A stretch of 41,405 nt of DNA, taken from NCBI GenBank assembly GCA_002633005.1, contig NMRA01001194.1, positions 1 to 41,405 of the forward strand, in the 5' to 3' direction. The stretch is from Phoronis australis. Taxonomy: Eukaryota > Animalia > Phoronida. Under the pieces are notes generated by a model, which worked only from the letters and a program-made list of their open reading frames with translations, was not told the origin of the DNA and searched no databases. The position numbers were made by a program, and so were the translations under genes. Shown here in pieces: positions 3,390 to 35,754 of this stretch; positions within the stretch are counted from its first letter, which is position 1, and every line of letters starts with the position of its first letter.

Positions 3390-3930
3390 TTTACGATCTG
3401 TGGTGGAAGGAATCAGTTTGGTGGTTTGCACCACTCTGAGCACACCTCAAGCTGGTACTGTTTCACCTAAAATCGTCGGCGGCAAAGCCAGTTAAATCTC
3501 TTTGCAGCCTATTGGTCCATCCAAAAGACAAGCAGGATGTTTACGACTGTGCTTGTGTCGTTGTTAACGTGCTTCGTAATAGCTTTGAATTTGTGTACAT
3601 CGGAGAGACTGGTCAAAATCTGGGCACGCGCATTTCTGATCCGTTACAGGAAACAGTTGGAATTAGACAGCTTCAACCATTTCACTTGCAGACAGAGAAG
3701 ATTTTCTAAGTTTCTTGACTTAATTCACAAATCTGCAATACTGACCATGTCATGCAAAAGAAGCATGACTACTGACTGGGAATATATGTCTCCATCTTGG
3801 ACTCAATTTTCAATAGGTTCACGAGATGGATCAGACAGCCAGTGTACATATTAGGAAAGCTGATAATCCTTGCACGAATAGGAATTCGGAACAATTCCAT
3901 CTGGACCCTTCTCACAATTATATGTTGAAA
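3390..3930 (+). mobile_element. Decayed Penelope-like retroelement, GIY-YIG endonuclease region
   Basis: Translates to AAKPVKSLCSLLVHPKDK...VYIGETGQNLGTRISD, then HKSAI...DWE in a shifted frame. This matches the PLE pattern KP..TLRSLLVHPKDK...YIGETGR.L..R..EH. Frameshifted. Confidence 0.8.
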
Positions 3931-5523: not shown

Positions 5524-5886
5524 TGTGTAATGGTTATTCACAGAATCATTGCCTTGAGACAGCTGACCAATACCATATATGGCAGATGATTGTTGTGAAA
5601 GTTGAGTTGCTTCCTGTTATTTCCTGTAGAATCGTGAATCATAAAGTTTAGTGCATGCAACCCACAAACATGTATTTGTAACTTGCACATAAATCCGTTC
5701 ACTTGTCTAATAAAGACAATCCTCTTCTTGCTGCTGTCAGTTGCTTTTAGTAGGGTACTTGAGTGTTCCGCACTTAGTTACTGAATACAACCATCTCACT
5801 GACGGATCGAGACAGCCCACACAACACAACGCTGGTATTAAGTCGAGTTATTCTACTATTCTACTACATTGTTTGGTGCAGTGACC
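5524..5886 (+). mobile_element. Putative 5' LTR and primer-binding site of a BEL/Pao element
   Basis: TGT at 5524, AATAAA at 5709, ...CTACA at 5868, then TGGTGCAGTGACC (5874-5886), which resembles a tRNA-His-type PBS (TGGTGCCGTGAC). It sits 10 bp before the gag ATG. The LTR start is approximate because no second LTR is present. Confidence 0.5.
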
Positions 5887-5895
5887 TGTGCGAAT

Positions 5896-6692
5896 ATGGA
5901 ACCACAACTGGCCAAACAGAAGAAAGTACGCGGTGCGCACAGAGGACTCATGACGAAGCTTATTGATCGTGCCACCCACTTCATGACTGCGACTCCATCG
6001 TACCATGTTGCCGACCTGGAGAAGGTTCTAAACCAGATACACACCAAGAGAACTCAGCTAGAAATGCTCGATGCCAGCATGATCACCCTGCTTGATGACG
6101 AGGATGCCATCGAAGACGAAGTCATCAGTACTGATGCCTACATGTCTACTGTGCTGGAGATCATTTTCCACGCGACCAGGTTTATTGACCAAGCAAAGAC
6201 CTCACCGACCCCAACCGCTACCAGGTCACCTGCTAGCCACCAGACTCGGACAGTGCAACTGCCCAAGTTGCAACTGCCTATTTTCTCTGGAGACCCCCTC
6301 CAGTGGCTGTCGTTTTGTGACTCTTTTTGTGCTGCGGTCGACTCAGATTCTGGACTAGAGCTAGTCCAGAAGTTACAGTACCTGCGTGTCCACATCGCCG
6401 GCGACGCCACCAATGCCATCGCTGGCCTCCCACTGACGAACGCTAGTTACTCAGGAGCCATCATGGAACTGCTTGCTGACAGTCATGGGAATCCACTCTA
6501 TTGGTCATTGCTTATATGAAAGCTCTGTGGGAAATCAACCCCCCCCCCAACCAACTAGTGCCAGCCTACACCACTTCCGTGACACTCTTGAGACCTACAT
6601 CCGGGGGCTGAGGACCCTGGGTAAAACAGAAGACTCCTACGGTGACCTCTTGGTGCCCATTATCTTTGAGAAAATCCCTGAAGGTGTGAAAG
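5896..6692 (+). mobile_element. BEL/Pao retrotransposon gag remnant (DUF1759-type), frameshifted and truncated
   Basis: N-terminal coiled coil, then LPKLQLPIFSGDPLQWLSFCDSFCAAVD...KLQYLRVHIAGDATNAIAGLPLTNASY. After a frameshift near 6500 it continues SLHHFRDTLETYIRGLRTLGKTEDSYGDLLVPIIFEKIPE. No protease, RT or integrase follows. Confidence 0.9.
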
Positions 6693-14600: not shown

Positions 14601-16979
14601 TGGTGAAAAACATAGGCGGGGCCTAAACAATATTTTCAATGCACGAGACGCTTTTACAATAAAGAGAATTTTGAGTTGTTAACGAGTACAAATTCACATC
14701 CTCCAAAGAATACGTCAGAAATACGGCAGGTTTTTACTTTGGCGTGGTTAAAGGATAATTAACTCACTACATTTATTTTCCAAGACATGCAGTTATTTAC
14801 GCGTTTCGCGCTACGCGCATGCACGTGAAATTTCTCCTACATCATAATTAGGCATATGTCTTGTACATGTACATGCAAAACGGTAGAGTGAAAACCATAG
14901 AGTAATGTTTTAATTCAGCAAGTCAATGAAATCTGATTTATTTCCGTTACAAAACCGTAGGCGTCGTTCACCAACCTGTGGCCCTGGGTGAATGACTGGG
15001 ATTAGTCTGACATCTGATATCTTTTCAGCTCCAGTCTTAGAACCACTTTCGACAGCTTATCAAACTACACGACAGGAGTTTTCAACAAAACATTATTGGG
15101 TGTTACAATCATGATATTGTATTTTACGGAAAGAAGTGTCTTTAATTGGTCTCTGAGTAACGGTTTTGCAAACATAATGATATGTATAGGCCCTAGTAGA
15201 GATTTGTTGACGTTATTTTCCAAAAATTACTTGTAACTGCGTTTTGATATAGACCCAGATGTCCCGCTTTTATCAGGAAGTCCTGCTTTTCAATCCAGTT
15301 GTCCCGTTTTTTCATTCTCGAACGTTGACCCTGATGCCAGATGTGATCAAAATAACATTGTCTATTCGTTGTGAATATTATATTCGAGAGTCCACATTCT
15401 TTTAACATAACAATAGTAAAAGTGTTTGCCAATGTCTCTTGTTTACCGCGTTAGCATACACTATATGTACGAGGATCACTAATTTCAATTTCTGAAGAAA
15501 TAACCTTTTTTGTAAACTTCTATCGGGAAAGTCCTATACTGCAACCAATGTAATTATCTGTCCAGAGTGTGTTTCAAAGCTACACAGTAGATGTTTGCCG
15601 ATTTTTTATCTATCAAAAAATCCTTATCTGCAACTATTGGATAGATGGAGTACATGTAATTAGTTTATAACATTTTAGTAAATATCAATGCATCCAGAAT
15701 TTTATTGAAGTATGTAATTGTTTCAAACGGCACCAGTGGTCCAATTAGTATATAAAGACGTATAATTTTGGATAAATGCCTGACTAAATTCTTAACAGCA
15801 ACTAAAATCAACGGTCTTTCTAGGGTAAAAATCCTTTGGATAATTGAAAATATTTCTCTTCTGGTTTCACTAGTCATTTATATAACCTCTCTTGTTCATT
15901 TCCTTTTCATGTCACTATTAAACAGTAACATTAAAAGGAAATGTAATACACCCTGTCATTTTTTTCCATTTTGGTAACACTCTTGCTTTTGAAAATTAAA
16001 AAAAAATGTTTAAACTTGTACACTGTAGGTATGCGAAATGGTAAATACCTATGAATTAAATTGTTTATCTTTTGCCTCTGGTATAATCACACACCATCAA
16101 AAACTGATAAAAGGCAATCTTATGCAATTTGGTTGAATACCGGCGGATTTGCAAAAAGGCTTATTGACGGTAAACTCCATAGCAAGAGCCAACACCGGCA
16201 CTTCAGCAGCGCGAGATTAAAGTTGGAAGTCCGGGGCTAGAGTCCTATAACCTTAAGGAGCATAAGATTTAAAACAGATGTTTCACAGCTTTTTTGGTTA
16301 GGTCTGTGTGATATTTCGAAGAAGGGAACCCGTAAACGTTTTCTTAGAAATGGATGAATTATGCGGCGGTATTTTGAGTTTTGGTCACACTAAATAATAA
16401 ACGTGTATGAAATGTTAGCCATATCTGCTAACAGAAACACAAAATATCCGGCGACTGATCGTCAATAAAATTATTATTCCACAAACGAAAATTTGTACGT
16501 GTCCTGATTACTTGAAGTTCTGAGGTGTGCATGTGCACGGGTCTTTCCTTAAAAAGTTAACAGTGTTTGCATTCCCTGTGATTGTATCACTTATAAATAT
16601 TTAGATTGTGTGTAATGTTTGTAATACACTATTGGACCGGTGGTCATTTGTGCACAAGCATACAAGATATAGAATTGACGTGTTTCATTAGATGTCTTAT
16701 TAGGCCAATGCTTGTGTTGTACTTCTACGCATAGTATCTAAGTTGGCTCAGCTGGAGACCCAGTGTCCTTAGTTGAAATATTGGAATGACTGAGGGGACA
16801 TGTCTAGTTATAAACATGTCATATTTGAGACAATTTGCGTTGATGCCGATCGAGTAGTGGACTGTAGTAATTTCACCTTAACCTATTCAATTAACGGTAC
16901 CACTGTTTAGGTGTGACACCCAATCTCAAAGTTTTTGTGAAGTTAAATTTAATAACCCCACTCTTATCATTTTCTAGCA
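11642..16979 (+). repeat. Near-identical duplication flanking an assembly gap (11642-14064 vs 14089-16979)
   Basis: Both copies run from AAAATTCGAAGAAATTGCG to ATCATTTTCTAGCA. Copy 2 has extra segments at ~14675-15017, ~15181-15247 and ~15667-15700. Confidence 0.95.
14065..14088. other. Assembly gap (24 N)
   Basis: Run of n characters. Confidence 1.
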
Positions 16980-17452: not shown

Positions 17453-19968
17453 GGCGATAGAAAAAATACGGACACTTAACTGTCTTTTTTACAATACCTA
17501 AGGACGCTGAGATTTGGAAGCGTTGGGTCGTTGCCAAACGCCGCGACGAAGGAAAATATTTCCGTGTAAAATTGATAAATGTTTTGGAAAAAATAGATCA
17601 TATTTGTCGCATCTCGGTTGCCGAGCATCATAGCAACGTCCGGTGATTCCTCGGACAGCCAGGCTGTGTTTTCATGACTACAGCTTGAAAGATCATGCAT
17701 TTTTCTTTCCAAAAAGGACAGGGCCCTCAATCCCTCAAATTTGGGGCCGAATATCGGCTCTATCCCCTTCTCAAAAATATTGAAACAATTCCTGACGAGG
17801 CCAAAAATTCCAGTTGATTAAGTGACTGAAAAAATCTCTCGAACTTCAAATCTCCTCCAACCACACAGGAGACAATTTGAAAGAGCACAACATGCTACTT
17901 GAGGCAGAGCCTATGAAAACTTGCAACAGGGCGGCTGCTATTGATGGTGTTCGAGAGGTAGATTTTCCCTCACTCGGCGAAAAAAAGTCCTCTCAGAAGG
18001 CACAGGCACCTTTCCCCTCGGATAAACGAGGATCTTGAAGAAACATGATAACTATGCTTGCTCTTTCCAGTTAACTGAAATAGAGTTCTAAAACGAAATC
18101 GAGTATTTTTTTCAGGTTATGCTTTGGACGAACGAATTAGGGGGTTTAATTTCAAAATTCAACTTGGTCCATATTGATATTTGAAACCTAACACAGGAAA
18201 TAGATGTAAGAGTTATTAAAACCAAGAAAGCAGAATTGATGGTGAAATAAGTTTTAGTTTCAGTTACAAGCCTGGTTGTTTATTTTAATAAAAGCATATT
18301 TAAGAACATCAATCGTTCTCGCAGATCAATGGCAAATCAAGTGTTAGTCCCGGTAGTCCCTACCCCTCTACCAGGACCTAGGCTAAGATTGATGTCAATA
18401 TCCTTGATCAAAAAAATTAAACCAGGTGAGAGTTGCACATGACAGGAAAACGGGATGAGCCACCATTGTCGAATATACCTTCAACTCGTCAAAAAACGAC
18501 CAGATGACCGGGTTCATGTAGAAAGAACTTTTTGTGAACAATTTACAAGAAGAAATGAAACCCTGCATTCAGCATTTAGGCCTAACAAGGGGCCACCATT
18601 TTGAAGAAGAGTGCAGGTACAGCCGAGAAAGTGGCCTTTTTTATTCTCAGTAAATACAAACAAATCACTTGGCCTACATACATGCACAATACCTAACTAA
18701 AAATTCTCCCAAGACTGGCCTATCCCTAGATTGTAATATTTTGGGAGTCCAAGTTGGATGCGCCGCAGCCTAACCGTTCAGTGCAACTTTATCGGCACAA
18801 TTGTGTTCCGCGGCGATAGAAAAAATACGGACTCAACTGTCTTTTTACAAAACCTAAGGACATTGATATTCGGAAGCGTTGGGTTGTTGCCATACGTCGT
18901 GACAAAGGGAAATGTTTCCGTGGAAAATTTACAAATGTTTTGGAAAACGGTTTGATCATATTTTGTCGCATCTCGGTTGCCGAGCATCATCATATCAACG
19001 ATCAGTGATTCTTTGGCCCGCCAGCCTGTGTTTTCATGACTACTTGTTGAAACATGATGCATTTTCTTTCCAAAAAGGACAGGAACCTCAATTTCTCGAT
19101 TTGGGGCCGGATATCGGCCCTATTGGCCTCTCAAAAATATTGAAAAAATTCCCCCAAGAGGCCTAAAAATTCCACTAACGTGATTGGAATTTTCCCCCGA
19201 ACTTCAAATCAACTGCAACCACACAGGTGACAATTTCAAAGAGCCCAAAAGGCTACTTGAGACAGATCCTATGAGAACTTGCAACAAGGCTGGGTGCTAT
19301 TGATGGTGATCGGGAGGTAGATTTTCCCCATCACTCGGCGAAAAAATCCCCTCTTAGAAGGCAGAGGCACCTTTCACTCGGATGAGCGAAGACTCTGAAG
19401 AAACATGATAACTATGCTTGCTCTGTCCAGTTCACTGAAGTTGAGCTCTAAAACGAAATGGATTGATTTTTGAGGTTTTGCTTTGGACGAACGAATTAGA
19501 TAGTTTAATTTTAAAATTCAACATGGTCCAGACTGATATTTGAAACCTAACACAGGAAATAGACGTAAGAATTATTAAAACCAATAAAGCAGAATTGATG
19601 GTCAAATAATTCTCAGTTTCAATTACAAGCCTGGTTTTTTAGTTTAATAAAAATATATTTAAGAACATCAATCGTTCTTGCAGATCAATCAGAAATCAAC
19701 TGTTGGTCTCAGGTAGTCCCTACTTCACTACCAGGACCTACATGTAGGCTATGCTTGATGTCAATATCCTTGGTCAAAAAATTAAACCAGAGGAGACTTG
19801 CACATGACAGCAAAACTGGATGAGCCACCATTGTCGAATATACATTCAACTCGTCAAAATACGACCAGATGACCTGGTTCTTGTAGAAAGTATTTTTATC
19901 AACAATTTACAAGAAGAAATGTAACCCTGCATTCAGCATTTAGGCCTAATCCGTAACACTATCGCCGC
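17453..19968 (+). repeat. Two diverged direct copies of a ~1.14 kb unit (17453-18585 and 18812-19949)
   Basis: Colinear from GGCGATAGAAAAAATACGGAC to GCATTCAGCATTTAGGCCTAA with many substitutions. Copy 2 is bracketed by the inverted 10-mers GCGGCGATAG (18810) and CTATCGCCGC (19959). Confidence 0.85.
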
Positions 19969-20941
19969 AATTAGGTCATATTGACTTTTCATGTTTCGTG
20001 TCTAGTTTTCAGAAAAACCATATACCCATTAGTCAGACAACTCTTTGGTGCATTGACTTGTCCTCTAATGTATTTTTTCTACGTCTCTGTGGTTAATTAT
20101 CGACACATTTTTAAGATTTAATGTCCAGGTTGGACTCGAAAGACGAGCCATTTAGCTCCCGCAATATCAACTTCCGCTATGTTTATCGCAGTGAGCTTGG
20201 CTTTGAATTAGATGTACAGGTCTTCCGCTAGTCACTTGCTGAATGCACTTGGAACCAACTTTATTTTCATTTCTTTCAATTTAGTACAGATCGTATTTTT
20301 GCACATTAATTATGAAGCCATTTGTTAAGAAAATACGAGTCCGCTTTGACCGAATCCATTTTGCCAGTTTTTAACCGGAGGGAAGAGCTCTGGGAAATTT
20401 ATCTCTTCTGAAATAGTGTTTATTTGGCTAAAATTATCATTTTGGATATAGACCATCACGACCAATAATGCCATATTTTGTAACCAATTTTTGAATTATA
20501 CCTTTCCCCCCGAACAAAATTGCAAATTTATAGACACGAAAGAAATACAAAATTTGCTGGTGTAGCCCAATAGATAACAATTTTCAAAGATCACCGAGTA
20601 TAAATAATGCGTCAAAGCGAGCCTAAATGTTCACAAGTAGTGTTTGCAAGTTTTGTTGTCAGTTTGTATTGTTTAGAACGTAAATGCAAATGACAAGCAA
20701 TGATCACTTACAGAGATCCTAGATTTTGAGAATCAGTTTGATCCTCGTTATTCACCAGCAAACACTAGATCATTAAACGTTACTAAGTTGATCTCAAGAT
20801 ACGGGCATTTATTGGTCAATAGATACAACCTAAGATCGGGACAACCAATCACAGCGCCAGTCATCCTCCGTTATTATGAGAGCGAAAAGTTGTCAGATAT
20901 TGTTGCTCGTTTTCCCATGGTTTATGGTATTATAATAGGGA

Positions 20942-21115
20942 ATGCCGAGGCGTTGCGTTCGTGGTGGTTGTGACAACTTGGTATTTGACCACGATGTGGC
21001 TGTTTTCACTTTCTCGCCGGACAACGGAGATGCGCGGATATGGCACATGTTTGTACAAGGAATTCGAGTGTTGGTGGAAAAAATATACTGGAGCTGGTTA
21101 TGTTCGTACGTCACA
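20942..21115 (+). pseudogene. Degenerate THAP zinc-finger ORF start (P-element-like or THAP-gene remnant)
   Basis: MPRRCVRGGCDN...VFTFSPD...RIWHMFVQGIR...WLCSYV follows the THAP pattern MxxxC-x4-C-xN...FP...W...LCSxHF. The final His/Phe is missing. Confidence 0.55.
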
Positions 21116-21342
21116 GTTATGTCCGTGGAGCTAAGAAACTTTCAATTGAAGTCGTCTTTCTTCTATTTTTCGTTTATGGGATATTGAATTCACGATTCTG
21201 ATATGCAGTGTTATAAAGGAAGGTTTTATGATGTTCGCAATGTAGTCCCTTGTCACAGCAAGACAAACGGTCGTTTTGAGCACTTTACGCCAGTTTATTT
21301 CCTTTTTTGTTATTGCAGGACACTTCCTAGATTTCAGAGACC

Positions 21343-21793
21343 ATGGCCTTCCTAGACGACATGATATACGACTACGTCTTTTTGTTTCATGAAGATGACA
21401 GAGAAGCGGCCTTGGCTTATCTAACAGAACTCCTAAGTCGGGAAATAAACGGCTGTCTTTACGACGACCCTACTGCAGCACCTGATTACACGGTATACAC
21501 GGTGGAAAGTATTTTGTACCTACTCAAGCATAGCCATGTATATTTGATATACATGAGCGAGTCATTTTGCGAAGGCATGAACGGACAATTAAAGCTTGCT
21601 CTCTACGTTGCTCTGGAGAAGATTTTGCAAGGTGAAGAAGGTTTATCCAGAAAAAAGTTGATTCCTTACTACCCCACAACTAAAAGAGAACTCCAGTGCA
21701 ATTTGGGACCTTTGGCGCCAATAGCCGGACTAGAACGTCTGAGCCCCTATTATGAGGATCATCTAACCAAGTCTTTTCCCAAGCACAAAAAAG
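21343..21793 (+). CDS. Coding exon 1: divergent TIR domain
   Basis: YDYVFLFHEDDREAA (box 1-like), INGCLYDD..AP (betaB/BB loop), ILYLLKHSHVYLIYMSESF (alphaB-betaC), RKKLIPYY (betaD). Acceptor TTGCAG at 21318; strong phase-1 donor AAG|GTAAGA at 21793/4, 11 nt before the ORF's stop codon. Confidence 0.75.
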
Positions 21794-24700
21794 GTAAGAG
21801 AGCGTGATAACTCATCAAGCACCCATGAAATTGTACCCTATCGTTTTGACGGTGAAAACCGATTATAAATCCCGAGCACATATTAAAATTTCTTTTAATT
21901 ATCGACTCCATCTTCAGAATAGTTGATGATAACAACGAATGTGTTTTCATTTCATGTCTTCGAACTTTTATCTTGTTTCGATATTTATGGGCCCTCTTTG
22001 AAAAACATTGTTTTGGTTCTTGTTTTGATATGGACCTCTTTTGTTTTCTTTTTGTTTTATTTTGTGATAGCGACATTTCGTAACCCTAGTTACACAGAAT
22101 GACACTACTTACCCAGTGGTATTCATCGACTGACTGGGAAGGAAGATTCACCGCCTCTAGCTTGCCTTGCAGTGTAATCCAGATTGGAGTTTACGATTTC
22201 GAATTGGTTGAATAAATTAGTAATGCGTGGGACTATAAAAGCTCTCTTGGAGGGAGCCTTACACGAAGGAACTTGTTAGGTCTCCCCCACTATGATTTTA
22301 AGTGATATACAATGTATAGCCTTTTGTATTTGGAGACTCTGTGATCAGCAATGTGGATAATTGATGAATTGTGAGATAAAGCAAGTAATTGCCGCCAGAC
22401 CAGGTTCATTCGGTACAATTCGTCATTTTCCGTAAAAGTTTAATATGTTCATTTTCTTAGTAGAGCAGTAATGCATACGATAACATCACACAGAAATGGA
22501 CGAACTTAGTATCGAGCGAGCGTGGTCAGACCATAATTATTCTTAAGATTCCTATTTCTTTAGGACATGTGCCAATGGGCCCTACAAGCCAACCTAGTGG
22601 CAAACCTAAGTCCATTGACCCTCCAGCAGCCAATGCGCCCGGTGGCGATACGCCTGACTCTAAACCCGACAGCCCCAGTGAGTTAACATTTTACATTCTT
22701 TTATATGCAAAATGGGTCTACTCAACCGCTGTTCATTAATGGACCTGTGCCCAGGGACAAGGATTAACTTTTTATTGAATGTTGACTTGTTATCGTGTGA
22801 TTTACAGTTTAAATGTCAAGAATGGTAGCTTTGTAACTAAGGCAATGAAAACTAAGATGATCTGAATTCTTTTACTTACAACCACCGTTTGAAACAAACT
22901 ACTAAGCTGTGATTAAGCAATGATGTATTTGGTGCAAAATATCAACATGTTTTGTATACCAATGCTGGGCACGGGCAGCTGGGATTTATAATGAAAGCTA
23001 TGCGTGAAATTAGAACATGCAAACCGAGAAGAGAGAACGTTGTTAATTTTAATATGTTCATTTTCTTAGTAGAGTAGTAATGCATAAGATAACATCACAC
23101 AGAAATGGACGAACTTTGTATCGAGCGAGCTTGGTGAGACCATAATTATTATTAGGAGTCATATTTCTTTAGGACATGTGCCAATGGGCCCTACGAGCCA
23201 ACCTAGAGGCAAACCTAAGTCCATTGACCCTCCAGTAGCCAATGCGCCCGGTGGCGATACGCCTGACTCTAAACCCGACAGCAGCAGTGAGTTAACATTT
23301 TACATTCTTTTATATGCAAAATGGGTCTACTCAACCGCTGTTCATTAATAGACCTGTTCCCAGGGACAAGGACTAACTTTTTATTGAATGTTGACTTGTT
23401 ATAGTGTGGTTTATAGTTTAAATGTCAAGCATTGTAGCTTTGTAACTAAGGCAAGGAAAACTAAGAAGATCTGAATTCTTTTACTTACAAGCACCGTTTG
23501 AAACAAATATCTAAGCTGTGTCTAAGCAATGATGTATTTGGTGCAAATATCAACACGTTTTGTATACCAATGCTGGGCACGGGGAGCTGTGATTTATAAT
23601 GAAAGATATGTGTGAAATTAGAGCATACAGCCCAAGAAGAGAGAACGTTGTTAATTAGTGACATCGACCGTGCTGGTGTTAAGAAAAGAAGGCCTGCTAC
23701 CTTACGTATATGTAGACTTTGTTAAGTATACAGCTTTACTATTGTTATTGGTTATAATTCATATTACGTGTAAATCATTAAATCACGTGAAAAACTATAA
23801 CGCGGTCAGTATGTATCTTTTAAGGATATTTGGGACTTTATCAACAAGTCTGTGTTTTCAGCTACGGTTCTGCAAAATCCCTGGATAAAAGTATAATTAT
23901 ATTTTCTCAAAGTGGAAAGTCTGTGAAACTTGTTTAATCCAAACTCCTTGACTGGCTCACGTGACCATTCTCTGGTAGAATTCTTCCAAAAAGTAGGTAA
24001 ATTCATAGGAAAATATAGGTAAATACATCAGTTGCATGATCAAATTTCTTTTGATACAAATATTGAAGATCAAATCTCAAAAACACTGTTAATGTTTTTG
24101 AATTATCCTTTAGTTTTCGTTTTGTGCAAATTTTGTTCATTTTTTCATGAAAATTCTAAAAATTAGAATTCTTGACAACCTCTAATGCCAGAGTGACAAA
24201 CCATTCTTAGCTGCGTTTTAGTAGACAACATTGTATAGAGTGTAATATCTGGTAGTTTCACTTAGTTTAACTGCCGTTTCTGAAACAGGCCTTTGGTGTA
24301 CCGAAGTTAACTAAATTTGGACATTTTTCTAAGGTAAACGTTGAACGTCGATTCTTGTTATAATTGGTGACCTAACTCCTTGTACAATGTGTTACGTTTC
24401 TAGGAAAAGACAACGAGCCGGACCCTGAAGGTGACCCACCGAAGATAACGGTAAAATTAACTGAAATAATATGATGTGATTAATGCAATATTAACAAGTG
24501 ATCGATTTCAAAAGTAAAAGATAGAAATTTAGAGCGTAAATTCAACTTAACCTAATTTCCGAGTCATGCGAAACGATCCCGAAATCGCGCCCACGGAAGT
24601 TTTTATCAAACATATTTCCGAAAGCACCTCGTGGGTTCTTCATGATTCCCATGGCTGAAGAAAGAACAGACTGTCGGAGCTTTGTGAGACGAAAGATTAC

Positions 24701-27700
24701 TTTTGAACTGAGTAAAGGTCAGTATAGACTATGATCAATTTTCCAGCGGTAAATGGCCTTAATAAAACTTGTTTTTTACAAAAACCTTGTGCCACCTTAA
24801 AAAAACTAGCCGATGTTCCGTAAGTGAGTCCCTTATTTCCTTGATCATGTAACAAGAGCCAATCATTCTCTGAGCTACGCAAAACTGACAAATTTCACTA
24901 TAAGAACACCACCATTGCCTAACAGAGGGTGGTCCTCTGAATCCACTGGAAACAAATTGCTAAGCAAAGCAAAGCCACATAAATCATGAAGTACTGTGTT
25001 GGCGACGTAGTTATAATGATATTTGCGGATTTCTATGTTGGCAAGTAGCATCATATGGTAATAAAAACAACGACGGATTTAAAACTGCTTGAAATGTTTC
25101 GGCGTTTACTAATATACCATCATCAGAAGAAAAAAACACAGTGGTCACCTCGCTAGCCCCAACAAGTTACGATACACAGACACAGTAGTAACAATAGACT
25201 GTACTAACAATGACAACCTGTGGTGTGCCAGTTGCCTGTTGAGACTAGGCTGGCACTATGAACTATTGATGTGTAGAGCCACACGACTTTTAACCTCCTT
25301 TGTTGTTTATGCTCGGTCTATTATAGCAAATTCATTGAGAGAGCATTGCTCATAACAATGATTGGAGCTTTGCAGACTAACATTAATGAGTGAAACCGTC
25401 AGAATTTAGATGTTCCGTGGTCCGGGTTTTCAAATGGCGAACAATTTCGCCTACAGTGTATATAACTGGAGCCACATTCAGCACAGATAAATTTGTACAC
25501 TACACTGGACTGTAGACCCACAGGAATTTTGTCCTCAGGGTTAAATAAATTGGACAGTTTTAGAGTCATGAATATTAACACAACTCTTAAGTCAACGGAG
25601 TAATAATTCACGTATTTGTTGAGTTTTCGTTGAGTGATCTTGACGAACATTTCAACATAGGGTATTTTAAAGTACTTGTGTTGACTCCAATGTAACCCTG
25701 ATGGTATTCATCGGTTGCCAAAACGAAACCTTTGACCAGGGGTCATTTTGCAACGATCAAAACTGGCCCGGGTCTTTTTTTCCACGGGAGTGAAACTTTA
25801 CAACTGTTTCCCCAATCGCAAGCAAATGATCCTTCGTTTGACAGTGATTGAGACCATTAGATCTCAAAATTTTCCAAAAATATAGACGAAATTTGTTCGG
25901 AAGACGTTGATGGTGATGACATTTATAAATTTTATTTTTTACTAAACATACTTAATTCTACCCTAAGCCCAAAACAAAAATAACACCGAAACAAACGAAC
26001 GCAAACAATTCCCTGCACGCATACACGGCGCAACCTCAGCCGCGCGTAAGTTGGCTTTCCAACCCTAAAGTGGATGTCTGTGGTTCGCCGATTTTCACTA
26101 CACGTCATTAGCGCGAATTTTAGCGTGAGCACGCCGAGCGTGCTGACAAACAGTTTTCCAAATTCTCTCCACAACGTTTTGTGTAGAAAATGGTAGCTGA
26201 ATAAACGAACGAGTAAACAACATACGACCCATACCCCCATCCGTGAACTACTTTAATTAGCGACTTTGTATAATAAAATTATTGGCTTTCACAATCGGTC
26301 ACCATGTTGGTTTTCAGACGCCAAGAACATGTCCTAGGTAACCGCCTTGGTAGTCATCACAATGTCTGAAAACTAACATTCTGACCACAGAGAAATTCAA
26401 TAGTTGTATAACACTCTACTTAGAAATGTCCTTCACAAACCACCTCAATGGACTGTGTGCAAGTTGAAGTGGAAAATGTGACCTTCTCACTTCTGACCGT
26501 CCTGTTTACGACTTTTGCCCTGGTTAATTATTCCTAGTGGCGTAAATTTGTTTGGACATGTATCTCTGATGACGGTATTTTGAATAAATGCTTGATGATA
26601 ACTTTGTAATTAGAGCGTAGATTCACAGTGGAATTTGGCCAGCGAAGGACCTTCAAACAATGATGACGAACTTGGGTATGACGTCTACGCAGACGCATTC
26701 GTCGAGTTGGTACGGGATGAGCGTGTTTCAAATGGCACTACCATCGGTGTCTACGGAAGTTGGGGCGCAGGGAAGACATTCTTGCTGAACCGCTTGAGTG
26801 AAAAATGCAAGCAGATAGAGTCCAACGCTAAGAAGGCAAGTAGTATTTGGCGAACTGGGTAAGGTCGGTAGCTGGCAATTGTTTTAGTTCCACAAACGCC
26901 CAATACGTCTGTACATGTAGGTGCCTCATTGCAGCTTTTCCGTGTGTCATGCATGGGAAGACCTGCTGATGGTGTTATATACATTTACTACTTCAAAGAC
27001 TACTTATTACATTCTAACTTGAACATTTTGTTACGAAAGCCGGGTCTATTTACAATTGATCAGTTTAAAATAAAACTATTAATAAAAAGTAACTGTGTTT
27101 ACTTTACATTGCGCAAGCATGTTTTTACAAAAGTTGCGTTATGTGGTTTAAAGTTTTAGACACATCAAGTTTTTCGGTAAAAAGATCGTTTTTACGGTTC
27201 ATATGGAAATCCTACACTCGTTCCAGGTTGATGACATGGGCAAAACCTCTTGGCAAGTCTATGCATTTTGACGGAATTTCCAAGAGGTTTTGGGCATGTC
27301 ATGAACTTGAGACGAGTATAAGAATATCTAGATACGTTATATCATCGCACGGAAATTGTCGAATATTTTATCGATGGAGTGTGTTCATGATTATAGAATT
27401 AGAGATACGTGGATGTACAAAAGCTTCAATGAATGCATTTCACGTGATTTTGGATGAACGCTTTGTTAGACAAAATCAGGAAGAGGTTATCTCTTCCTGA
27501 CAAAAGTAATACTTGTTAATCTCATAAGTAAGTGTCAAGATCATGCACGAATCCCTAGAATGAACAACTAGTTATTATCAATTTAAGCTAATTGTCTACT
27601 TGATGTCTACACTTACCATCAAATCAATTATTAACTTCCATACTCAACCCATAGAAGTAATTGTTTCCCTACCATTTAATTCATGAACGAAAAATCTTAA

Positions 27701-30700
27701 TTCATGTTATAAGGTCCTCGTAATCATGTCACCGACGTTTGTGAAGGGGGTCAAGTTTTGCTTGAAACAAGAATAATTCTTTAAAAACCCACCTCAGAAA
27801 TTCTTGTTCAAACTACATCTTTTACAGGAATCGCAACCTCCAAGCTATCGCCAAATGAAGACAAGGTTATGTTGCCGTTTCTCGTGTAACATATGTGCCT
27901 ATCTTACTTTACTTGCGTTCGTGGTACTGGGTTTTGGCATAACTGCAGGAGGTTTGGTTTTGGGACTTGGTGACGAAAACAACACAACGGGAAATGGAAG
28001 TGCAACAAACTCACCAACAGTTTTACCTCAAATATATGTGATGTCGAGTTTCGGCGGATTTGTCGTTATAGTTATCCTATTCGCCCTGATTAAGTGCTGC
28101 TGTATCAGTGGGTGCAAGATGTTCGACGAATTCTTCAAATTACTGTTACTCGTGTTCTTCAAACAACCATCGCAGCAACGAAGCACCACGGACAACAAAT
28201 CAACACCAAGCAACTTAAAAGTGATTGAAGCTCGTTTCAACGCTTGGGAGTTCTCTGGCTCTGACCATCTGTGGGCTGGTATAGTTACAAACATCTGTAA
28301 TGTTGTAGAACAAGAATTCGGTTACTGGAAAACTAGACTGTTCCGTTTCGTTGAAGGCAAAGCCACAGACACTGAGCAAAGCAGAGCCGTCGAAGACAGT
28401 TTTTGCTTCAGGTCATGCTGCGTCTCGGGAGGGACTGAACGTCACTATAGCCAGGTACCCACGGACGATAACACGACAACCGGAGTACAACCAAATTCTG
28501 GAAGCGACACAAGCAATGTGCTGGAAGAGCGGCAATCCTGTCTGCGGATATCCTATTACTTTACCTTTTTCTTGATAATCTCCATGTTAATTTTTTCAGT
28601 AACAGTAATTATTTATTATGCCCAAACAACGCCCCCAGCCACGCGCGAGCAACTCCTATTTGGCGTAGCGCTTGCGGGTTTGGTTACAGCGCTAATACCG
28701 ATAATTAAAACAACCGTGGGTTTGATTAGTTCCCTGTGTCAATCTGAGGCGGAACGTGTAGTGCGGATGAAGAGGCACTTGACTCGTTCAAATTTTGACG
28801 AGGAATTAGGATTTATGAACAGAGTCAAATTAGAAGTATACTTTATTAACGATTTTATTAGATATATGGAATACATATACCAGACAGATTATCGCCTACT
28901 TATAATCATTGACGATCTTGACAGAGTGGAAAAAGACAAAATTCACAAAATTCTTGAAGCTGTTAATATATTGTTCTCCGATAACACTCTGCCCTTCATT
29001 TCGCTAGTTGCCGTTGATCCACTGATTGTCGTGAAGGCTATCGAGCAATCATATCCCAAAGTGCTGTTAAAAGCTAATATTAACGGTCACGAGTATCTGA
29101 AGAAAATCATTCACCTGCCTTTTTGCATTCCCTTGCCCAAGGACGAGTCAGTTAAGCAGTATGTTAACGCCATGGTGAAAACAGAAAAGTCCAGTAATGC
29201 CGTCCGTAATGACAGTAATGTTGAACCTAAACACTTAGAACTTGGACACGTACATGATAGCCAAATGAATGAGCGAAAGGCGGACGGTGATACTCCGTCA
29301 AAAAGTGATGAGCAAAGAGAAGTTGAGAATGCCTCGTTGAGAACAGCGATGGATGGTTTGAGAGAAACGAGTGAATTCCTCGCACCTAACGCGCGAAATA
29401 TCAAACGTATTCGTAACATACTGATGGCAACGTTTAAGCTTGTGATGAGAGGGGAAAAGATGAGCGACAACGAAATTCACGAGCTGGCGCGATGGGTGCT
29501 TTTCACAGAGCAGTGGCCATATAGAGCGAGTTGGTTGATACATCTTTGCGAAAAGTGCGAGTACGATTCGGAGAAACAGCTATTCACGTTATACGAAGAA
29601 TGCGAGAAAGAATTGGCCAAGCCGTCCAACTGGAAAGCGCTACTTAGCCTTGATCACAACCCAAGGCTGTTCAAATTATTCCTAAAGAAATACAAGTTTA
29701 AAGTGAGTGACGTGAAAAAGTTTTTGCCAGTAACTGTAAACCTTGACTACACAATCAGGACAATAATAGTGAATGCTGAATCGGAGAAAACTGCAAAAAT
29801 GTATCGCGAACAGTTGAAATCGAATGAAGTTGGAAAAGCTGGAGAAAATCAATCGACACTAAATGCAGCGGAAATGACTAGATCAGAAAATAGAAGAGAT
29901 GGCAATGAAGGTACCATTAAATTAGTTTTAACAATTTTTCAAATCAGAATATATTGTTGCACCTAACTGTCTCAAGCTGTCTAATAGCCGTCTTTCCGTG
30001 GCGTAATTCAGAGGCACCCCATTCTGCAAACTTACATTTCGCGAGAGACAAAAACATCGCCGAGTATCTGTTTAACAGTAAATCAATATGGTGTCGACCC
30101 AATGTTCCCCAGCCAGATGTTCCCCCGGCCTTATGTTCCTCTGTCTCCATTTTCCACCGGTCCTATGTTGCCCAGCAGAGGGTCTCGATGTTATCCCTAC
30201 TCGTTAGTTTAGGTTCAAGGGCGATAATTTGATGCGCCCCACTATTTTTATGTGAAGACACTCATAACGCTTACACTCATGTCGTATTTTCGGAAATTGT
30301 CCACTTCCTTGGAGAACGGTTTTCCGATAGCATTTACCCGGAACGTTCTAAATGTACACACCCAATGTATGGATTTTTTTGCAAGATTCGTTGTAAGTTT
30401 GTATTGTTTAGAACTCAAATGAAATACATATGCCAAACAATGGTCACTTTAGTGTTCCGGATTTTGAGAACCAGTTTGATGCTCGTCGTCCAGTAGGGGG
30501 AACTGGTTCTCAAAATGAGGGGACCCTTTAAGTGACTATTACCCAAATCTCAAGCACTCGTTTAACAGTTCAGTCTCTCTGGAGTAGTCAGCAATCAAAT
30601 TTGTTCTTACATAATTCAAAGCTTGGATTCTCCAGGGAAACCTGCATTGTATCTAGCAGACCTACATTTTGTGAGAGACACAAACAGTGCCCTGTGTTTG

Positions 30701-33700
30701 GCTAAGAGTAACCGAATAATACCATTGTGTTTAGAATTATTTCATTGACTTAGAGATTTTTACGGGGGGACAGCAGTCCACTCGCCACCAAAAGACGAGA
30801 CAAATCACGTGGAAGCCACAGAAAATCAGTCACCAGACACTCTACGTAAGCTGACAAATAAGTGAAGTATCAAGATTTTACCACCTGAAAGGTGCTTGCT
30901 GCACAAATTCAGCAATCACTTTCGCAATGGTCATCATTGCCATTACAGCACACGTGAAATCGTGGTAATGGCTTTAGAGTGCTTTAAAGATTTGAGTACC
31001 TTGTTAAAACACTTACAGAAAGTGGGCATCATTTAATCTAGATTTAAATGTAGTTACTTTATATTTACTGCATGTTTATGGGGTACATCTTTAAAGCATA
31101 CGTTGTACACATCAAGTTTTTACGGAAGACGAATTCTTCACGCTACAATGAATTGTGTAGGATGCTGGTAATCCAACGCAGAATGAAACAAACTTCTACA
31201 CTTATATCAAAGCAAAAGTTTGGGCTTAGTGTTGATGCGTTTCACCACCAAGTTTTGTTTAGGAGATAGGACAGTCAATCACACATTCGAGTTCATCAGT
31301 AAATCTACCCGTGCAACTTACGTTCTTAATCATATCCCTACCTCTGCGAGACAAGCGCCGACATTGCTCGTAGCGTTCATGTCAATAGAATACACTCTAC
31401 ATCATTTGGTTTCTCTCTATTTATTTCTCAATAGTTTTTATTTGATGAATATTTTGGGTGAATATCGTTTATTTCTTTCCTTTTGTTTCTTTTACATGTT
31501 CCATTACTTTCCAGCGCCACGTGAACGACTCGAGAAAAACGTAAAAGCCAGTGGCATGAAGTTTCTCGGTCAAACGCCACGTGATGGCAATTGCTTCTTC
31601 CATGCTATGGTGTCTCAGTGTAAGCGAACGAACACTCGCCCTGATATCACACCTCAAAAGCTTCGAGAAGAAACTGTTGGCCATATGAAAGTAAGCGTTT
31701 TGAAAGTAATCAGGATCCGTGTCAATTGTATCGCCTCTGACATGGAATGTTCTAAATACATCAATTTTGTAGATTAAATCTATAGTCAGTGATCGATGAT
31801 TCAGGACAATGTGGTTATAAACGCTAGAATTTTTTTCGGCATTATTTCATGCGAACAGATCGCGTACATGTATGGGTAACGCACTGTTTCTCAGAATGAT
31901 TTGTCGTCACTTTTATGCTCCCGCATATTTATTTGTCGACTCATTATGCCGTCTTCCTCGTCCCTCTGGTGTCCAGCATCCGGAGTCCGCTGCTCTATCT
32001 CCAAAATCTTTCGATATGTGTTCATGAATTTTGCGCATGTTTCTTTTATGAATGGCACGGATGAGCGAACATTAGGGCGGATCCGACCACTGGTGCGCCC
32101 CTTGGTGTCAATTTTAGTTTTTAGGGTTTTCTCTGTATCTTCAAAGGTCCTCAACATATTTTCATAAAATTTGGCAGATAGGCATCTATTGGCAAGATGA
32201 AGCTATCCCCCGTTTTCGACTGAATTTATGGTATTTTGCGTCACACAGTGGCTGTTTTGTTTGTTTGTTGTCGTCCTCACCTCTGTCAACCAAACCACTC
32301 TGAGCATGATTGTGAAAATTGGCATATATGGTCCTATTGTAAAGAGGACGAATGACAATTTTCCGACGATTTCGACTACCGTGGCGCTTCTAGTGGCGGT
32401 TTTGGTTTGTTTTTTGCGCCCCTGTCTGTATCTCCTAAACCCTCGGCAGGATCTTTGTTAAATTCAGAATATATATTTATATGAAGCTGACAATGGACCA
32501 CCACAACTTTGAGACCAATACGACGAATGCCGTGTCCCGTAATGGCAATTTCATTTTTCCGTTTTCCTCTGTTTCTCTGAAATTTCGTGACAGATTTTTA
32601 TGATAATTGGTAATTGAGTTTCTATTAAAGAAATGGTATCAAGCACCACTTTTTAGGATGGTTCGACGTATTTTGCTTCTAATGGCCAATTTTTACTGTT
32701 TTCTAGTCTATTTTTGAAGTCCGACCTGGATTGTTCTAAAAATCCCTCGACCCTCTCACCCCGCGACCCCCTCGACCCATTTTACCCAAGCTCGACTCAA
32801 TCTGAACATAGACCAAGCGCTGACCTGGAGGACCAACGAATTGGGCCATGAGCTCGGATGGCTTTTCCCGTCATTTTTTTGGAATAAAGAGAGTATTCGG
32901 CAAGTTGGAAAGCCAAAAACAGAAAAAAAAAACAACGTCACCATATTAAATTTAAGACCTACCAACGTTACAAATGTTGTTTCCAGCAGGGCATAATCGT
33001 CTCGTCTTCTCTTCAGTAAATGACAGATTCAAGCTTTTTTGGGAGAGTGCAAAGAACCGAAGAGTAATGTATGCTGGAAAATACAGTTGGAAAAACAAAT
33101 TGATAACTAAAAGGAGTATTTCAACGTTATGTGGAGTATAATATAAACGAATGTACAACAGAAAGCAAGTTATAAAAATGTGAAATTATTTTCGTTCACA
33201 TTAACGTACTCTCTCCCTAAGTTTAGGAGAACTGGGCCATTGGTAGCCACTTGTGGAACTATTTCCTTGACAACAATAGCGCGCTCATAATGCACTATTT
33301 CAGATCACGTTCTTACGACACTTTCTGTTTTTAACCACCAGAGCAGATTAGCGTGTAGGTTGTCTTGTGGGAGTCATTAGGCGACGAAATGTGGTTATGA
33401 AATGTTTAAACGTCGAAGAAAAATCATTGCTGCATGTCGTGGGTAGACGATGTTGTGAATAGTGGGTCATTGGGGTTGGAGGTCGAGGGTGTCGTGGGTC
33501 GGCGGGGTGTCGGGTCGAGGGGTTTTGGAACAATACGTCTGCCCCTCTATTTAACCAAACCAATCTAAGAATGAAAACTGGCACAGTATGCGTCCACTTT
33601 TTGGGAATATGTTTGTGCTTTGACCGCAAATTTGTTGGGAAATCACTGGAGCACGACACTGTAAAGAAAGAACAATCACTCATGGTTTTTTGAACCCCTG

Positions 33701-35754
33701 TTTTGTGTAAATTTATTGAGCTTTGTGCTGCATAAATCGACTGAAGTGAAGCGCCCGTGAATTTCCTAAACCCAAGTGTCATACCTTGAAGTATAAATAG
33801 GGTATTGGAGACGATCAGAAGCTGAGAACGCGTGTGGGCTGATGATGATTTTCAGACAACACGAACTATAGCAGCTCCTCGCAGTGGCAATTTCTTTGCG
33901 TCTATGCCTCTATCTCTCAAACCTTCTGCAGGATCGTCATTAAACTTGGCAATTTATATCATCAAAGTTGACAACGGACAAAGACGACATTTGGATGGAT
34001 CCAACTACTGATATGGTCTCATAGTGGCAATTAATTTTTTCGTTCTTTGTATCTTTGAAACTCCTTGGCAGATTTTTATGAAACTTAACAAGTAGGTATT
34101 TATTATAGAGTCGTAAATATTTCCGTTTATAGCGGATGTTTTACTGTCATGAAATTTTGCAAATAGTTTTCCTATTAAAGAGACGACGAAACCTTCTCAT
34201 TTTCGATTGGATTTGGCGTATTCTACGCCACTTGGTGGCCATTTTAAATTTTTTAATGAGTTTTTGACATCACCCTCCTTATTCACCAAACCGCTTGAAG
34301 GATTAATACTAAAATTTGATGAAAAGACTGAGCCTGACGTTGGTTTTCAGGCGTTTTCATCTACTCTGCTACCCCCACCCCCTGCCCCTGCATCCACGGT
34401 TGTATCATCTTTACCTGCCCCAAGATTTTTTGCAGATGTTTTCTTATAAAGATGGCAACAGATGACGATGATTGATTAGCCATATTCTGCACCAACTAGC
34501 GGCCATTTTAATTATTTTAATTTAGTTTTTTGACGTTTACTCCTGTATCTGCCCAACCATACCTCGGATTATTATGAAAATTACCAAATGTGTTTCTACT
34601 GACAAAAGCATAACTGGCGTGGATTTTCAAAGAGGTCCAACTTCTGTGTTGCCGCTTATTGACGTTTTTTCACATCAACGACTGTATCAGCTAAACACCT
34701 TGCAAGATGTTTTTGAAATTTTCCAATATTTATTCTATTCCTATTAACTTGACGGCAGATGGGTAGATTCGACTACTGCTTTGACTCCTAATTGCCGTTT
34801 TTTAAGTTTGCCTTTCTATCTTTGGATTTCTTTGACGAATTTTCATAAAATCTGGCAAATAATTTGGGAGACGACGACACCTTTCCATTTTTGGGCGGCT
34901 TCAACACACTATGAGCCATCTAACGGCTACGAGAAGCACACCATTTTGTCATTGCCTTATACAGTATGACATCTGCTCCCAACATGCTTAAAATCAGTTT
35001 TGGAATGTTTGGCATAGTGTCTGTTAGCAAGTATCACATTCAGTATGTGTCACGTGTCAAAAAGCATTTCATGGGCAAGACTTTTTGACCATCTGAAGAC
35101 ACGAATTTATGTATATTACAGTGTTGAAACAATATTTTTTTACAAACAACTGTGAATTTTTAAAAGTGACTGATTGTTCTTTATACTTTATTCAATACAT
35201 AAAAATATATTTTACAAATATTTGTGACGTTTTAGAGTCAAAAGTCAAGTGATGGTTGTTTAAAGTTTAGCCTTGAAGATAGAAAACTGACTGTTTCCGA
35301 AGAAGAAAGTTTGTAAAATGGAAAGTTAGTTTTGTTAGCGCTCGGTTAGCCTATGGAAAATCATATGACAAAAATATTCCCAAAATACTAATTATTTCTT
35401 GTGATTTTCATCTAATCGATTGTGATGTTTCATTAGGCGCAGTCGTTGTGTAGCGTGTAACATGTTCTTGTTTGATTTATACAGGACAATCCTGACGACT
35501 ACAAATCATCAGTCACCAAAAACTGGGAGGACTATATCGAAGGCATGAAAAAAAGTAATACTTGGGTTGATCACCCTGCCGTAGAGGCTGCAGCAAAGGT
35601 CCTTGGTGTGAAACTACACATAGTGAACAGTTTTCAATATGATAAGTCGGATACAATTGAAAACATCATCAACGAAACAGCTAAAGGTCCTACGTTTCTG
35701 CTTGGTCACGAAGACGAAGTTCATTATGAGAGTCTTGAGCTAGTGCCGCCCTGA
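21343..35754 (+). CDS. Multi-exon gene model: TIR - Pro-rich linker - KAP-family P-loop NTPase (4 TM) - OTU deubiquitinase, ~1,158-1,188 aa
   Basis: Proposed join: 21343-21793, 22564-22677, 23173-23286, 24404-24450, 26614-26835, 27828-29910, [30756 or 30774-30845, optional], 31515-31690, 35485-35754. Intron phases 1,1,1,0,0,1,(1),0 are all mutually compatible and give a stop-free frame. The start is in an ACCATGG context. Confidence 0.72.
22564..22677 (+). CDS. Coding exon 2: Pro-rich linker repeat, copy 1
   Basis: TTTCTTTAG| ... |GTGAGT; 114 nt, phase 1-1; encodes GHVPMGPTSQPSGKPKSIDPPAANAPGGDTPDSKPDSP. Confidence 0.75.
23173..23286 (+). CDS. Coding exon 3: Pro-rich linker repeat, copy 2
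   Basis: TTTCTTTAG| ... |GTGAGT; 114 nt, phase 1-1; encodes RHVPMGPTSQPRGKPKSIDPPVANAPGGDTPDSKPDSS. Confidence 0.72.
24404..24450 (+). CDS. Coding exon 4: short linker exon
   Basis: TTTCTAG| ... ACG|GTAAAA; 47 nt; encodes RKDNEPDPEGDPPKIT. Its phase 1 to 0 change is exactly what is needed to join exon 3 to exon 5. Confidence 0.65.
25088..25129 (-). ncRNA. Degenerate minimal type I hammerhead ribozyme associated with a Penelope-like remnant
   Basis: The minus strand reads CUU-CUGAUGA-UGGUAUAUUAGUAAACGCC-GAAAC-AUUUC-AAG. Both core boxes are present, CUU/AAG can form stem I, and stems II and III have mismatches. Confidence 0.5.
25088..25680 (-). mobile_element. Decayed Penelope-like retroelement (GIY-YIG region and 3' end), intronic
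   Basis: LKLSNLFNPEDKIPVGLQSSVVYKFICAECGSSYI matches the PLE pattern KD.IP..L.S.VVYKF.C..C...YIG.T. It is preceded by a KIPYV-like segment and is frameshifted after YI. Confidence 0.8.
26297..26388. repeat. Short imperfect inverted repeat (MITE-like)
   Basis: GGTCACCATGTTGGTTTTCAGAC pairs with GTCTGAAAACTAACATTCTGACC. Confidence 0.55.
26614..26835 (+). CDS. Coding exon 5: KAP NTPase N-terminus with Walker A
   Basis: DDELGYDVYADAFVELV...TTIGVYGSWGAGKTFLLNRL, the typical KAP D-x-LG and GxWGxGKT motifs. Acceptor AATTAG| at 26613 (in-frame alternative CAG| at 26628); donor AAG|GCAAGT. Confidence 0.88.
27828..29910 (+). CDS. Coding exon 6: KAP-family P-loop NTPase core, NKPD1/Kidins220-like, with two pairs of TM helices
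   Basis: Motifs RFNAWEFSGSDHLWAGIV, ELGFMNRVKLEV, Walker B LLIIIDDLDR, VAVDPLIVVKAIE, YLKKIIHLPFCIP, PNARNIKRIRN, WVLFTEQWPYRASW; four hydrophobic segments. Acceptor TTTTACAG| (phase 0), donor AAG|GTACCA (phase 1). Confidence 0.93.
30461..30516. repeat. Perfect 16-bp inverted repeat; a related left arm occurs at ~20723
   Basis: ATTTTGAGAACCAGTT ... AACTGGTTCTCAAAAT. 20701-20754 resembles 30441-30492. Confidence 0.6.
30756..30845 (+). CDS. Putative optional linker exon 7
   Basis: Good donor C|GTAAGC (phase 1); encodes ...VHSPPKDETNHVEATENQSPDTL. The acceptor is ambiguous: AG at 30755 or CAG at 30773 keep the frame, while TAG at 30753 does not. Confidence 0.4.
31515..31690 (+). CDS. Coding exon 8: OTU deubiquitinase N-half with catalytic Cys
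   Basis: TPRDGNCFFHAMVSQ...LREETVGHMK; acceptor TTTCCAG| (phase 1), donor AAA|GTAAGC (phase 0). Confidence 0.9.
32730..33534. mobile_element. ~800-bp non-autonomous DNA transposon with subterminal CGACCC repeats
   Basis: Inverted ends ATTGTTCTAAAAATCCCTCGACCC / GGGTCGAGGGGTTTTGGAACAAT, with short C-rich repeats on the left mirrored by G-rich repeats on the right. Confidence 0.7.
35485..35754 (+). CDS. Coding exon 9 (terminal): OTU deubiquitinase C-half with catalytic His
   Basis: Acceptor TATACAG| (phase 0); encodes DNPDDYKSSVTKNWEDYIEGMKKSNTWVDHPAVEAAAKVLGVKLHIVNS...LLGHEDEVHYESLELVPP*. Confidence 0.9.
   Translation, partial: DNPDDYKSSVTKNWEDYIEGMKKSNTWVDHPAVEAAAKVLGVKLHIVNSFQYDKSDTIENIINETAKGPTFLLGHEDEVHYESLELVPP

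Follow-up and report, generated by a model that had tools for sequence, protein, structure and literature searches.

A probable single gene joining a TIR-like domain, a KAP NTPase and an OTU deubiquitinase in the phoronid Phoronis australis

Background

Among the KAP NTPases of animals, Kidins220/ARMS is a neuronal scaffold with four transmembrane (TM) segments and interaction modules at both ends, and NKPD1 is not known to have a clear role. Here we analyse a locus of Phoronis australis (contig NMRA01001194.1, positions 1 to 41,405; this stretch of 41,405 nucleotides (nt) is called the window below) in which exons for a TIR-like domain, a KAP NTPase and an OTU deubiquitinase domain can be joined in one frame. 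A preliminary description of the DNA, made from the letters alone, had proposed that they form one undescribed gene. Our results indicate a probable single gene, with an architecture found nowhere else in the searches made. It resembles Kidins220/ARMS as a four-TM KAP scaffold with modules at both ends. Kidins220/ARMS carries ankyrin repeats and a SAM domain, neither of which gave a Pfam match on any exon scanned, and no Kidins220 was among the relatives retrieved.

Bacterial KAP fusions defend against phage and need the Walker B motif and the fused region (10.1101/2025.10.07.681051, excerpt). Tmn, a related membrane NTPase, acts as an oligomeric sensor (PMC13001434, an excerpt that also quotes the definition of the KAP family), and in conflict systems of bacteria KAP can take the place of the STAND NTPase (PMC8195603, excerpt). 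The anti-phage proteins PifA, QatA and EF_KAP have an NTPase fused to an effector region, as does the gene proposed here, which differs from them in being animal, spliced and equipped with a ubiquitin effector. With the PADLOC and NCBIfam profiles, both KAP exons gave weak matches to PifA and QatA (for QatA, a score of 39.6 against a cut-off of 600).

Deubiquitinases in animal TIR pathways mostly damp signalling, and A20 and OTUD5 have such damping roles. The TIR domains of TRIF and TRAM form filaments, according to the titles of their PDB entries. Invertebrates possess ecTIR-DC adaptors (PMC6321704, excerpt) and TRIF/TRAM signalling is stated to have arisen only in chordates (PMC9334734, excerpt). 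No description of an animal KAP protein with TIR or OTU was found in the literature searches made, where supplementary domain tables could list one, as could the metazoan TIR survey that the excerpt of PMC6321704 cites. The pairing of TIR with KAP alone is not new across life and recurs in bacteria.

Gene structure

Eight plus-strand exons between 21343 and 35754 (Table 1) join to a protein of 1150 amino acids (aa) without internal stop. The frame also stays open with the duplicate exon 23173-23286 included (1188 aa) and without the exon 30756-30845 (1120 aa). The open reading frames (ORFs) and small exons that had been joined beforehand, the optional fourth included, thus fit together in one frame, with splice sites found where they had been placed. 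Splice scores are simple consensus counts, not the output of a trained model, and ranks are relative to the sites within the window. The donor of the TIR-like exon, described earlier as strong and just before a stop, agrees with 8 of 9 consensus positions (AAG/GTAAGA), is in the top 0.4% of the 2516 GT sites of the window and lies 11 nt upstream of the stop of its ORF. The motif AGGTAAG is not enriched window-wide (4 observed, 3.7 expected), and only the position of this donor is informative. The acceptor at 21319 is also strong (top 0.3% of AG sites) and is followed by an in-frame stop ahead of the ATG, which has the start context ACCATGG; taken together, these features make an N-terminal position of the TIR-like domain likely. 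An upstream coding exon is not needed, although the phase-1 acceptor at 21338 would allow for one. Since the TIR donor comes just before a stop and the ORF of the KAP N-terminal exon has no Met, each of these exons needs a partner.

Table 1 Exons of the proposed gene and of the optional linker copy, with positions in the window
Feature	Coordinates	Strand	Remarks
TIR-like exon	21319..21793	+	5' untranslated region, ATG at 21343, 150-aa domain; exits in phase 1
Linker exon, Pro/Ser/Asp-rich	22564..22677	+	38 codons, phase 1-1
Linker exon, second copy	23173..23286	+	optional, or assembly duplicate
Linker exon	24404..24450	+	47 nt, phase 1 to 0; splice sites moderate; least certain of all exons
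KAP N-terminal exon	26614..26835	+	Walker A (GxxGxGKT, aa 252-259); without own Met; predicted GC-AG donor at 26835
Large KAP exon	27828..29910	+	four hydrophobic segments, Walker B (hhhhDDLDR, aa 637-644), C-terminal helical region; ORF continues to stop at 29966
Linker exon	30756..30845	+	30 codons, phase 1-1, optional
OTU first-half exon	31515..31690	+	Asp1026, catalytic Cys1029
OTU second-half exon	35485..35754	+	His1141, Glu1143, stop codon

The junction into the large KAP exon stands only in a modified form. The obvious GT donor at 26858 is in phase 2 and, joined to the acceptor at 27828, leads to a stop at codon 296, whereas the GC donor AAG/GCAAGT at 26835 (phase 0, 8 of 9 consensus positions) keeps the frame. 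Without it, the frame would have to be kept by the weak acceptors 27845 or 27866 or by an intervening exon, for instance 27227-27443, in overlap with an inverted repeat. If donor 26858 were used the message would be truncated and the locus decaying or unproductive, a reading in line with the canonical GT of that donor and with the low RNA depth. However, the frame of 729 codons is open with its motifs intact, the OTU residues are intact and the in-frame GC donor scores better than GT 26858, which makes decay very improbable indeed.

The KAP exon leaves at 29910 in phase 1, matching the OTU acceptor at 31515 as had been proposed. This acceptor is good (top 3%) and lies 1.6 kb past the KAP donor, and the T content flips at the donor itself, from 15% before to 40% after. 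The second copy of the linker exon sits in a 612-nt tandem duplicate (22436-23048 and 23045-23656, ~93% identical); the RNA depth in its bin was 0-0.13, and 0.29-0.36 in the bin of the first copy.

Transcription

RNA coverage was taken from a set of contigs whose RNA status is guessed (X1) and from three raw RNA runs (X2-X4), of which ~18-19% each was used. Reads were counted from 90% likeness, most of them fitting partly. Contigs of X1 cover parts of the large KAP exon and differ from it at 1 of 254, 3 of 284 and 5 of 174 bases. For X2-X4, in the three bins that lie completely within the KAP exon, the first-mate-minus depth was 0.25-4.18 and the plus depth 0, and first-mate-minus signal corresponds to plus-strand RNA under the usual stranded library. 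Coverage over the two ends was thin: 0.82, 1.51 and 0.92 on minus (0.38, 0 and 0 on plus) in the TIR bin, and 0.33, 2.0 and 0.37 on minus (0.46, 0 and 0 on plus) in the last OTU bin. The intron bin 30919-31519 had depth 0. These data support expression of the locus at a low level. The RNA check suggested in the preliminary description thus gave stranded coverage over KAP but no read across an exon junction among the 15 joints listed of 53, all 15 of them in repeats. The exon junctions are unreadable because the reads are swamped by repeats at 32131-32716, in the OTU intron. This interval belongs to an abundant repeat family, with ~100-fold read depth that falls mostly on one strand.

Several of these observations count against a single gene. 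The acceptor at 26614 is weak (9 of 18 consensus positions, with 58% of AG sites scoring as well), and so is donor 29910 (6 of 9, with 15% of GT sites scoring as well). The KAP ORF has its own in-frame stop at 29966, 53 nt past that donor, X1 has depth 0 in the TIR bin and in the last OTU bin, paralogues may contribute reads at the 90% likeness threshold, and a junction read is missing from the joints listed. The fusion could then be partial, with a TIR-KAP protein stopping at 29966 and OTU as a separate gene or minor isoform, or with the TIR-like exon on another transcript. Such an arrangement would suit the weak donor with its nearby stop, the lack of junction reads and the ascidian relatives, which end 2-87 aa past the conserved KAP end and have no OTU. 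Against it, the OTU acceptor has a high rank and a matching phase at a short distance, the composition becomes intron-like exactly at 29910, and RNA depth is similarly low over all three domains. We consider a partial fusion unlikely, and the presence of TIR, KAP and OTU on one mRNA fairly probable.

The KAP NTPase core and its membrane topology

The KAP NTPase identity can be taken as certain from the sequence. The Pfam profile PF07693 (cut-off 20 bits) matched the exon 26614-26835 with 41.2 bits (E 1.6e-10) and the large exon with 97.1 bits (E 1.4e-27), and both Walker motifs are in place, as are four hydrophobic segments, the number of TM segments given in the preliminary description. These segments (aa 292-327, 342-378, 515-546 and 552-582, with 19-residue hydropathy of 2.2-2.7) all lie between Walker A and Walker B. 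A fifth hydrophobic segment (665-684, hydropathy 1.9) corresponds in the alignment to the part of the conserved core that follows Walker B. Two N-glycosylation sequons, N329 and N334, are located in the TM1-TM2 loop, in keeping with the requirements of a topology with the N-terminus inside. With this predicted topology and no signal peptide in view, the TIR-like domain, both Walker motifs and OTU would all be cytosolic, and the earlier argument from an even TM count is in this way supported by hydropathy and sequons. The comparison with NLR proteins survives as an analogy only: NACHT (12.4 bits) and NB-ARC (12.0 bits) stayed below their cut-offs and covered the P-loop region alone, and the Pfam scan of the exons gave no sensor repeat domain.

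The OTU domain

The OTU profile PF02338, scored on the two halves separately, is split collinearly over the two exons, with profile positions 2-38 in the first (17.5 bits) and 40-111 in the second. The second half reaches 24.1 bits for the ORF against a cut-off of 23.3 and 23.2 bits for the exon alone. Asp1026 precedes the catalytic Cys1029 in the first half; His1141 was assigned by motif position and lies outside the Pfam-aligned stretch. OTU enzymes have Asp or Asn two residues after the catalytic His, and here this place is taken by Glu1143. The first half gave weak PDB matches to OTUD3 and viral OTUs (E 0.24-2), and the second exon gave no useful PDB match and none at E<=1 among 26 candidate homologues. 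The OTU assignment made earlier is confirmed by the profile, with Cys1029 and His1141 retained, and the domain may have deubiquitinase activity.

The TIR-like domain

The identity of the first domain as TIR, claimed at the outset, is supported by three kinds of evidence and was missed by the standard searches. In the ESM Atlas, matches of the TIR-like exon scored 0.90-0.92 and 19 of 30 belonged to TIR or TIR_2 clusters, a level of 0.9 that is reached by 4-10 of 100 shuffled control proteins. MAFFT placed the exon in register with 12 bacterial TIRs at 11-21% identity. Shuffled sequences attained its glocal profile score (z 3.2-3.7) in 0 of 300 and 2 of 1000 cases; this test was devised only after a local profile test had failed. 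A structural model guided by the 12 bacterial TIR rows reached a predicted local distance difference test (pLDDT) score of 63.6, and its best match among 48161 chains was TRIF (Z 11.4, root mean square deviation 3.0, 131 residues aligned), followed by TRAM (Z 10.5) and IL-18R beta (Z 10.1), with the best bacterial TIR at Z 8.9. Foldseek put plant TIRs first for this model, with TRIF among the highest TM-scores. The TIR domains of TRIF and TRAM (TICAM) are non-catalytic, as this one appears to be, and have 17% and 14% identity to it; here the domain would instead be fused to an NTPase and a deubiquitinase.

On the other side, the TIR-like exon had no match in Pfam (TIR, TIR_2, SEFIR), PADLOC, NCBIfam, the PDB sequences or 1.84 billion representative proteins, and phmmer missed it as TIR. 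No homologue was found among 909 longer-protein candidates, nor in viral contigs, 72 retrieved proteins or 2733 ORFs of retrieved loci. A local hidden Markov model and hhalign, both set against bacterial TIRs, matched out of register, and among 600 real non-TIR windows 13 attain the glocal score as well. The single-sequence model had a pLDDT of 43 and no fold match; no match in its fold searches came within E<=0.001 or Z>=5, and SPARTA TIR-APAZ chains, ranked second and seventh (E 1.4 and 2.7), are no more than a hint. Finally, the TIR likeness of the guided model is circular; the ranking of TRIF, TRAM and IL-18R beta above the best bacterial TIR is less so, and as evidence the model is partly circular. 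We nevertheless judge it quite likely that residues 1-150 adopt a TIR fold.

The same negatives would suit a non-immune single gene, a scaffold of the NKPD1 or Kidins220 type with another flavodoxin-like first domain and a part in receptor ubiquitination or trafficking. In the Atlas, the KAP exon likewise scored highest with chordate KAP and NKPD1 clusters (0.89 and 0.85). The Atlas features, glocal profile and guided model, three partly independent lines, point however to TIR, and ankyrin and SAM are missing, so that we regard such a scaffold as distinctly improbable. In an alignment-dependent comparison, Lys84 stands at the column where all 12 bacterial rows have the catalytic Glu of NADases, a conserved residue of helix C. 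With Lys84 in place of this Glu a docking role becomes likelier than NAD cleavage, and the sequence favours a scaffold over an NADase effector.

Animal relatives and bacterial parallels

Among 7996 scored candidates of 381-1215 aa we found 55 relatives, none with a precomputed TIR or OTU domain, a check that would miss a TIR as divergent as that of the window. Of the named relatives of the KAP core, those from ascidians and a hemichordate are the closest. These NKPD1-like KAPs of Ciona, Phallusia, Clavelina and Saccoglossus (P0001-P0003, P0005, P0006, P0058) share with the window the KAP core with Walker A and B, the hydrophobic pairs between the Walker motifs and the C-terminal region, at 25-41% identity. 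The ascidian proteins of full length differ from the window gene in that 53-59 aa precede Walker A and both TIR and OTU are absent, and the Saccoglossus protein has weak ankyrin matches in place of these domains. In an ascidian-like locus (L074) the KAP core is spread over about ten exons, against two here. Three further animal proteins (P0004, P0007, P0009) resemble the same large KAP exon, with unreadable flanks. No second species with TIR-KAP-OTU was found in these searches, which also counts against the proposed gene.

Patterns from the animal KAP alignment retrieved 144 loci. TIR_2 was present in 12 of the 66 N-terminal segments of KAP relatives scanned (65 with more than 110 aa before the P-loop motif, and L088 added by hand), where the other modules were caspase, tyrosinase, kinase, Mrr and WD40; OTU occurred in none of the 66. 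The Anaerolineales TIR-KAP fusions (L001, L083, L085, L086, L088, L090) have an N-terminal TIR before a membrane KAP, as in the window, but differ from it in a TIR_2 with catalytic Glu, a single hydrophobic pair and no OTU. Other bacterial fusions join KAP to tyrosinase (L004:1300-3843, L006:1-2541, L009:1872-3911), caspase (L005, L130), kinase (L003) or Mrr (L019). In the yellow-green alga Tribonema, protein P0021 joins TPR repeats to a KAP NTPase.

A quick tree was built from 58 rows, none of them vertebrate, with a midpoint root, with bacterial rows picked by the animal-alignment patterns and with P0001, P0003, L084, L017, L089 and L130 left out (anchor motif missing). The window groups with NKPD1-like relatives in a set of animals (96). 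This set is nested in one of eukaryotes and giant viruses (96), and an Anaerolineales group with five TIR-KAP rows adjoins the latter (SH-aLRT 97). The tree, made with a quick search and no clade test, identifies no donor. A giant-virus contig (L081:4470-10757) codes for a KAP NTPase of 2096 codons with a very long insertion that groups with the eukaryote KAPs. A common origin of the TIR-like domain with the bacterial TIR-KAP fusions was considered and is unsupported, the matches being out of register and the guided model nearer to TRIF. The animal fusion looks convergent, with the added domains bordered by phase-1 junctions and a TIR-like domain that resembles those of animals; given the 11-21% TIR identity and a model closer to TRIF, convergence is likelier than a shared fusion.

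Possible function

We tentatively propose, as an explanation that falls a little short of probable, that the locus is one spliced gene whose product is a deubiquitinase anchored in the membrane, gated by nucleotide and brought to TIR signalling complexes. The 1150-aa product would be seated in the membrane by its four helices. From what is known of the families, the non-catalytic TRIF-like TIR would dock on TIR-based immune signalling complexes by TIR-TIR contacts, KAP would act as a nucleotide switch with ATP-dependent oligomerisation, and OTU would trim the ubiquitin chains of those complexes under KAP control, in a damping role comparable to that of A20 or OTUD5. The gene may have been assembled by lineage-specific exon shuffling onto an NKPD1-like KAP core.

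The protein could also be an activator and not a brake. On this view KAP in the membrane would detect infection or membrane stress, form oligomers and thereby nucleate TIR filaments that start signalling, as with an NLR, and OTU would edit or limit the protein's own output. The bacterial KAP fusions that serve as defence switches, the oligomeric sensor Tmn and the replacement of STAND NTPases by KAP (all from the excerpts cited above) would be precedents, as would the filaments of TRIF and TRAM and the TIR_2 domains at the N-termini of KAP relatives. Sensor repeats are missing, however, the TIR-like domain is without the catalytic Glu, and the C-terminal deubiquitinase belongs to a class that mostly damps animal TIR pathways; an activator is thus an unlikely alternative to the recruited deubiquitinase preferred here. 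Point mutants of Walker B, of the TIR interface and of the OTU Cys would separate switch, docking and effector roles.

An animal KAP flanked by TIR and a deubiquitinase would link the animal KAP branch to innate immunity. The TIR-like domain itself would be informative if truly TICAM-like, given the chordate-only origin of TRIF/TRAM stated in the excerpt of PMC9334734. A wider idea, rather doubtful in our view, is that animals took over KAP, an anti-phage switch of bacteria whose closest relatives there carry TIR, caspase, kinase and tyrosinase as exchangeable modules, and made of it an immune hub alongside the NLRs. On this idea the TIR-KAP-OTU protein would be the first example, a nucleotide switch embedded in the membrane through which TRIF-like filament signalling is linked with the editing of ubiquitin, and would hint at an immune origin of NKPD1-like proteins.

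Other features of the window

The window consists of animal DNA that is rich in introns, has a GC content of ~39% and contains remnants of transposons. A neighbouring gene has a frame of 444 codons (784-2118, minus strand) with a Pfam match to 'Protein rolling stone' (PF21534, 30.6 bits, above the cut-off). Two plus-strand frames at 5842-6778, frameshifted relative to each other, match DUF1759 at successive profile positions and are presumably a gag remnant of a Pao/BEL-type retrotransposon. A direct duplicate of ~2.4 kb with 93-96% identity (11642-16979) flanks an N gap at ~14066-14088 and possibly represents two haplotypes assembled in tandem; the 612-nt duplicate that contains the linker exon could be another such case. 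At 17453-19949 there is a direct repeat of 1.15 kb (85% identity), the second copy of which is matched by many RNA reads. Just upstream of the TIR-like exon, a plus-strand frame of 82 codons (20939-21187) has a start that is THAP-like by eye and no Pfam match. Short frames at 3440-3709 (plus strand) and 25399-25707 (minus strand), also without a Pfam match, look by eye like the GIY-YIG ends of Penelope-like elements.

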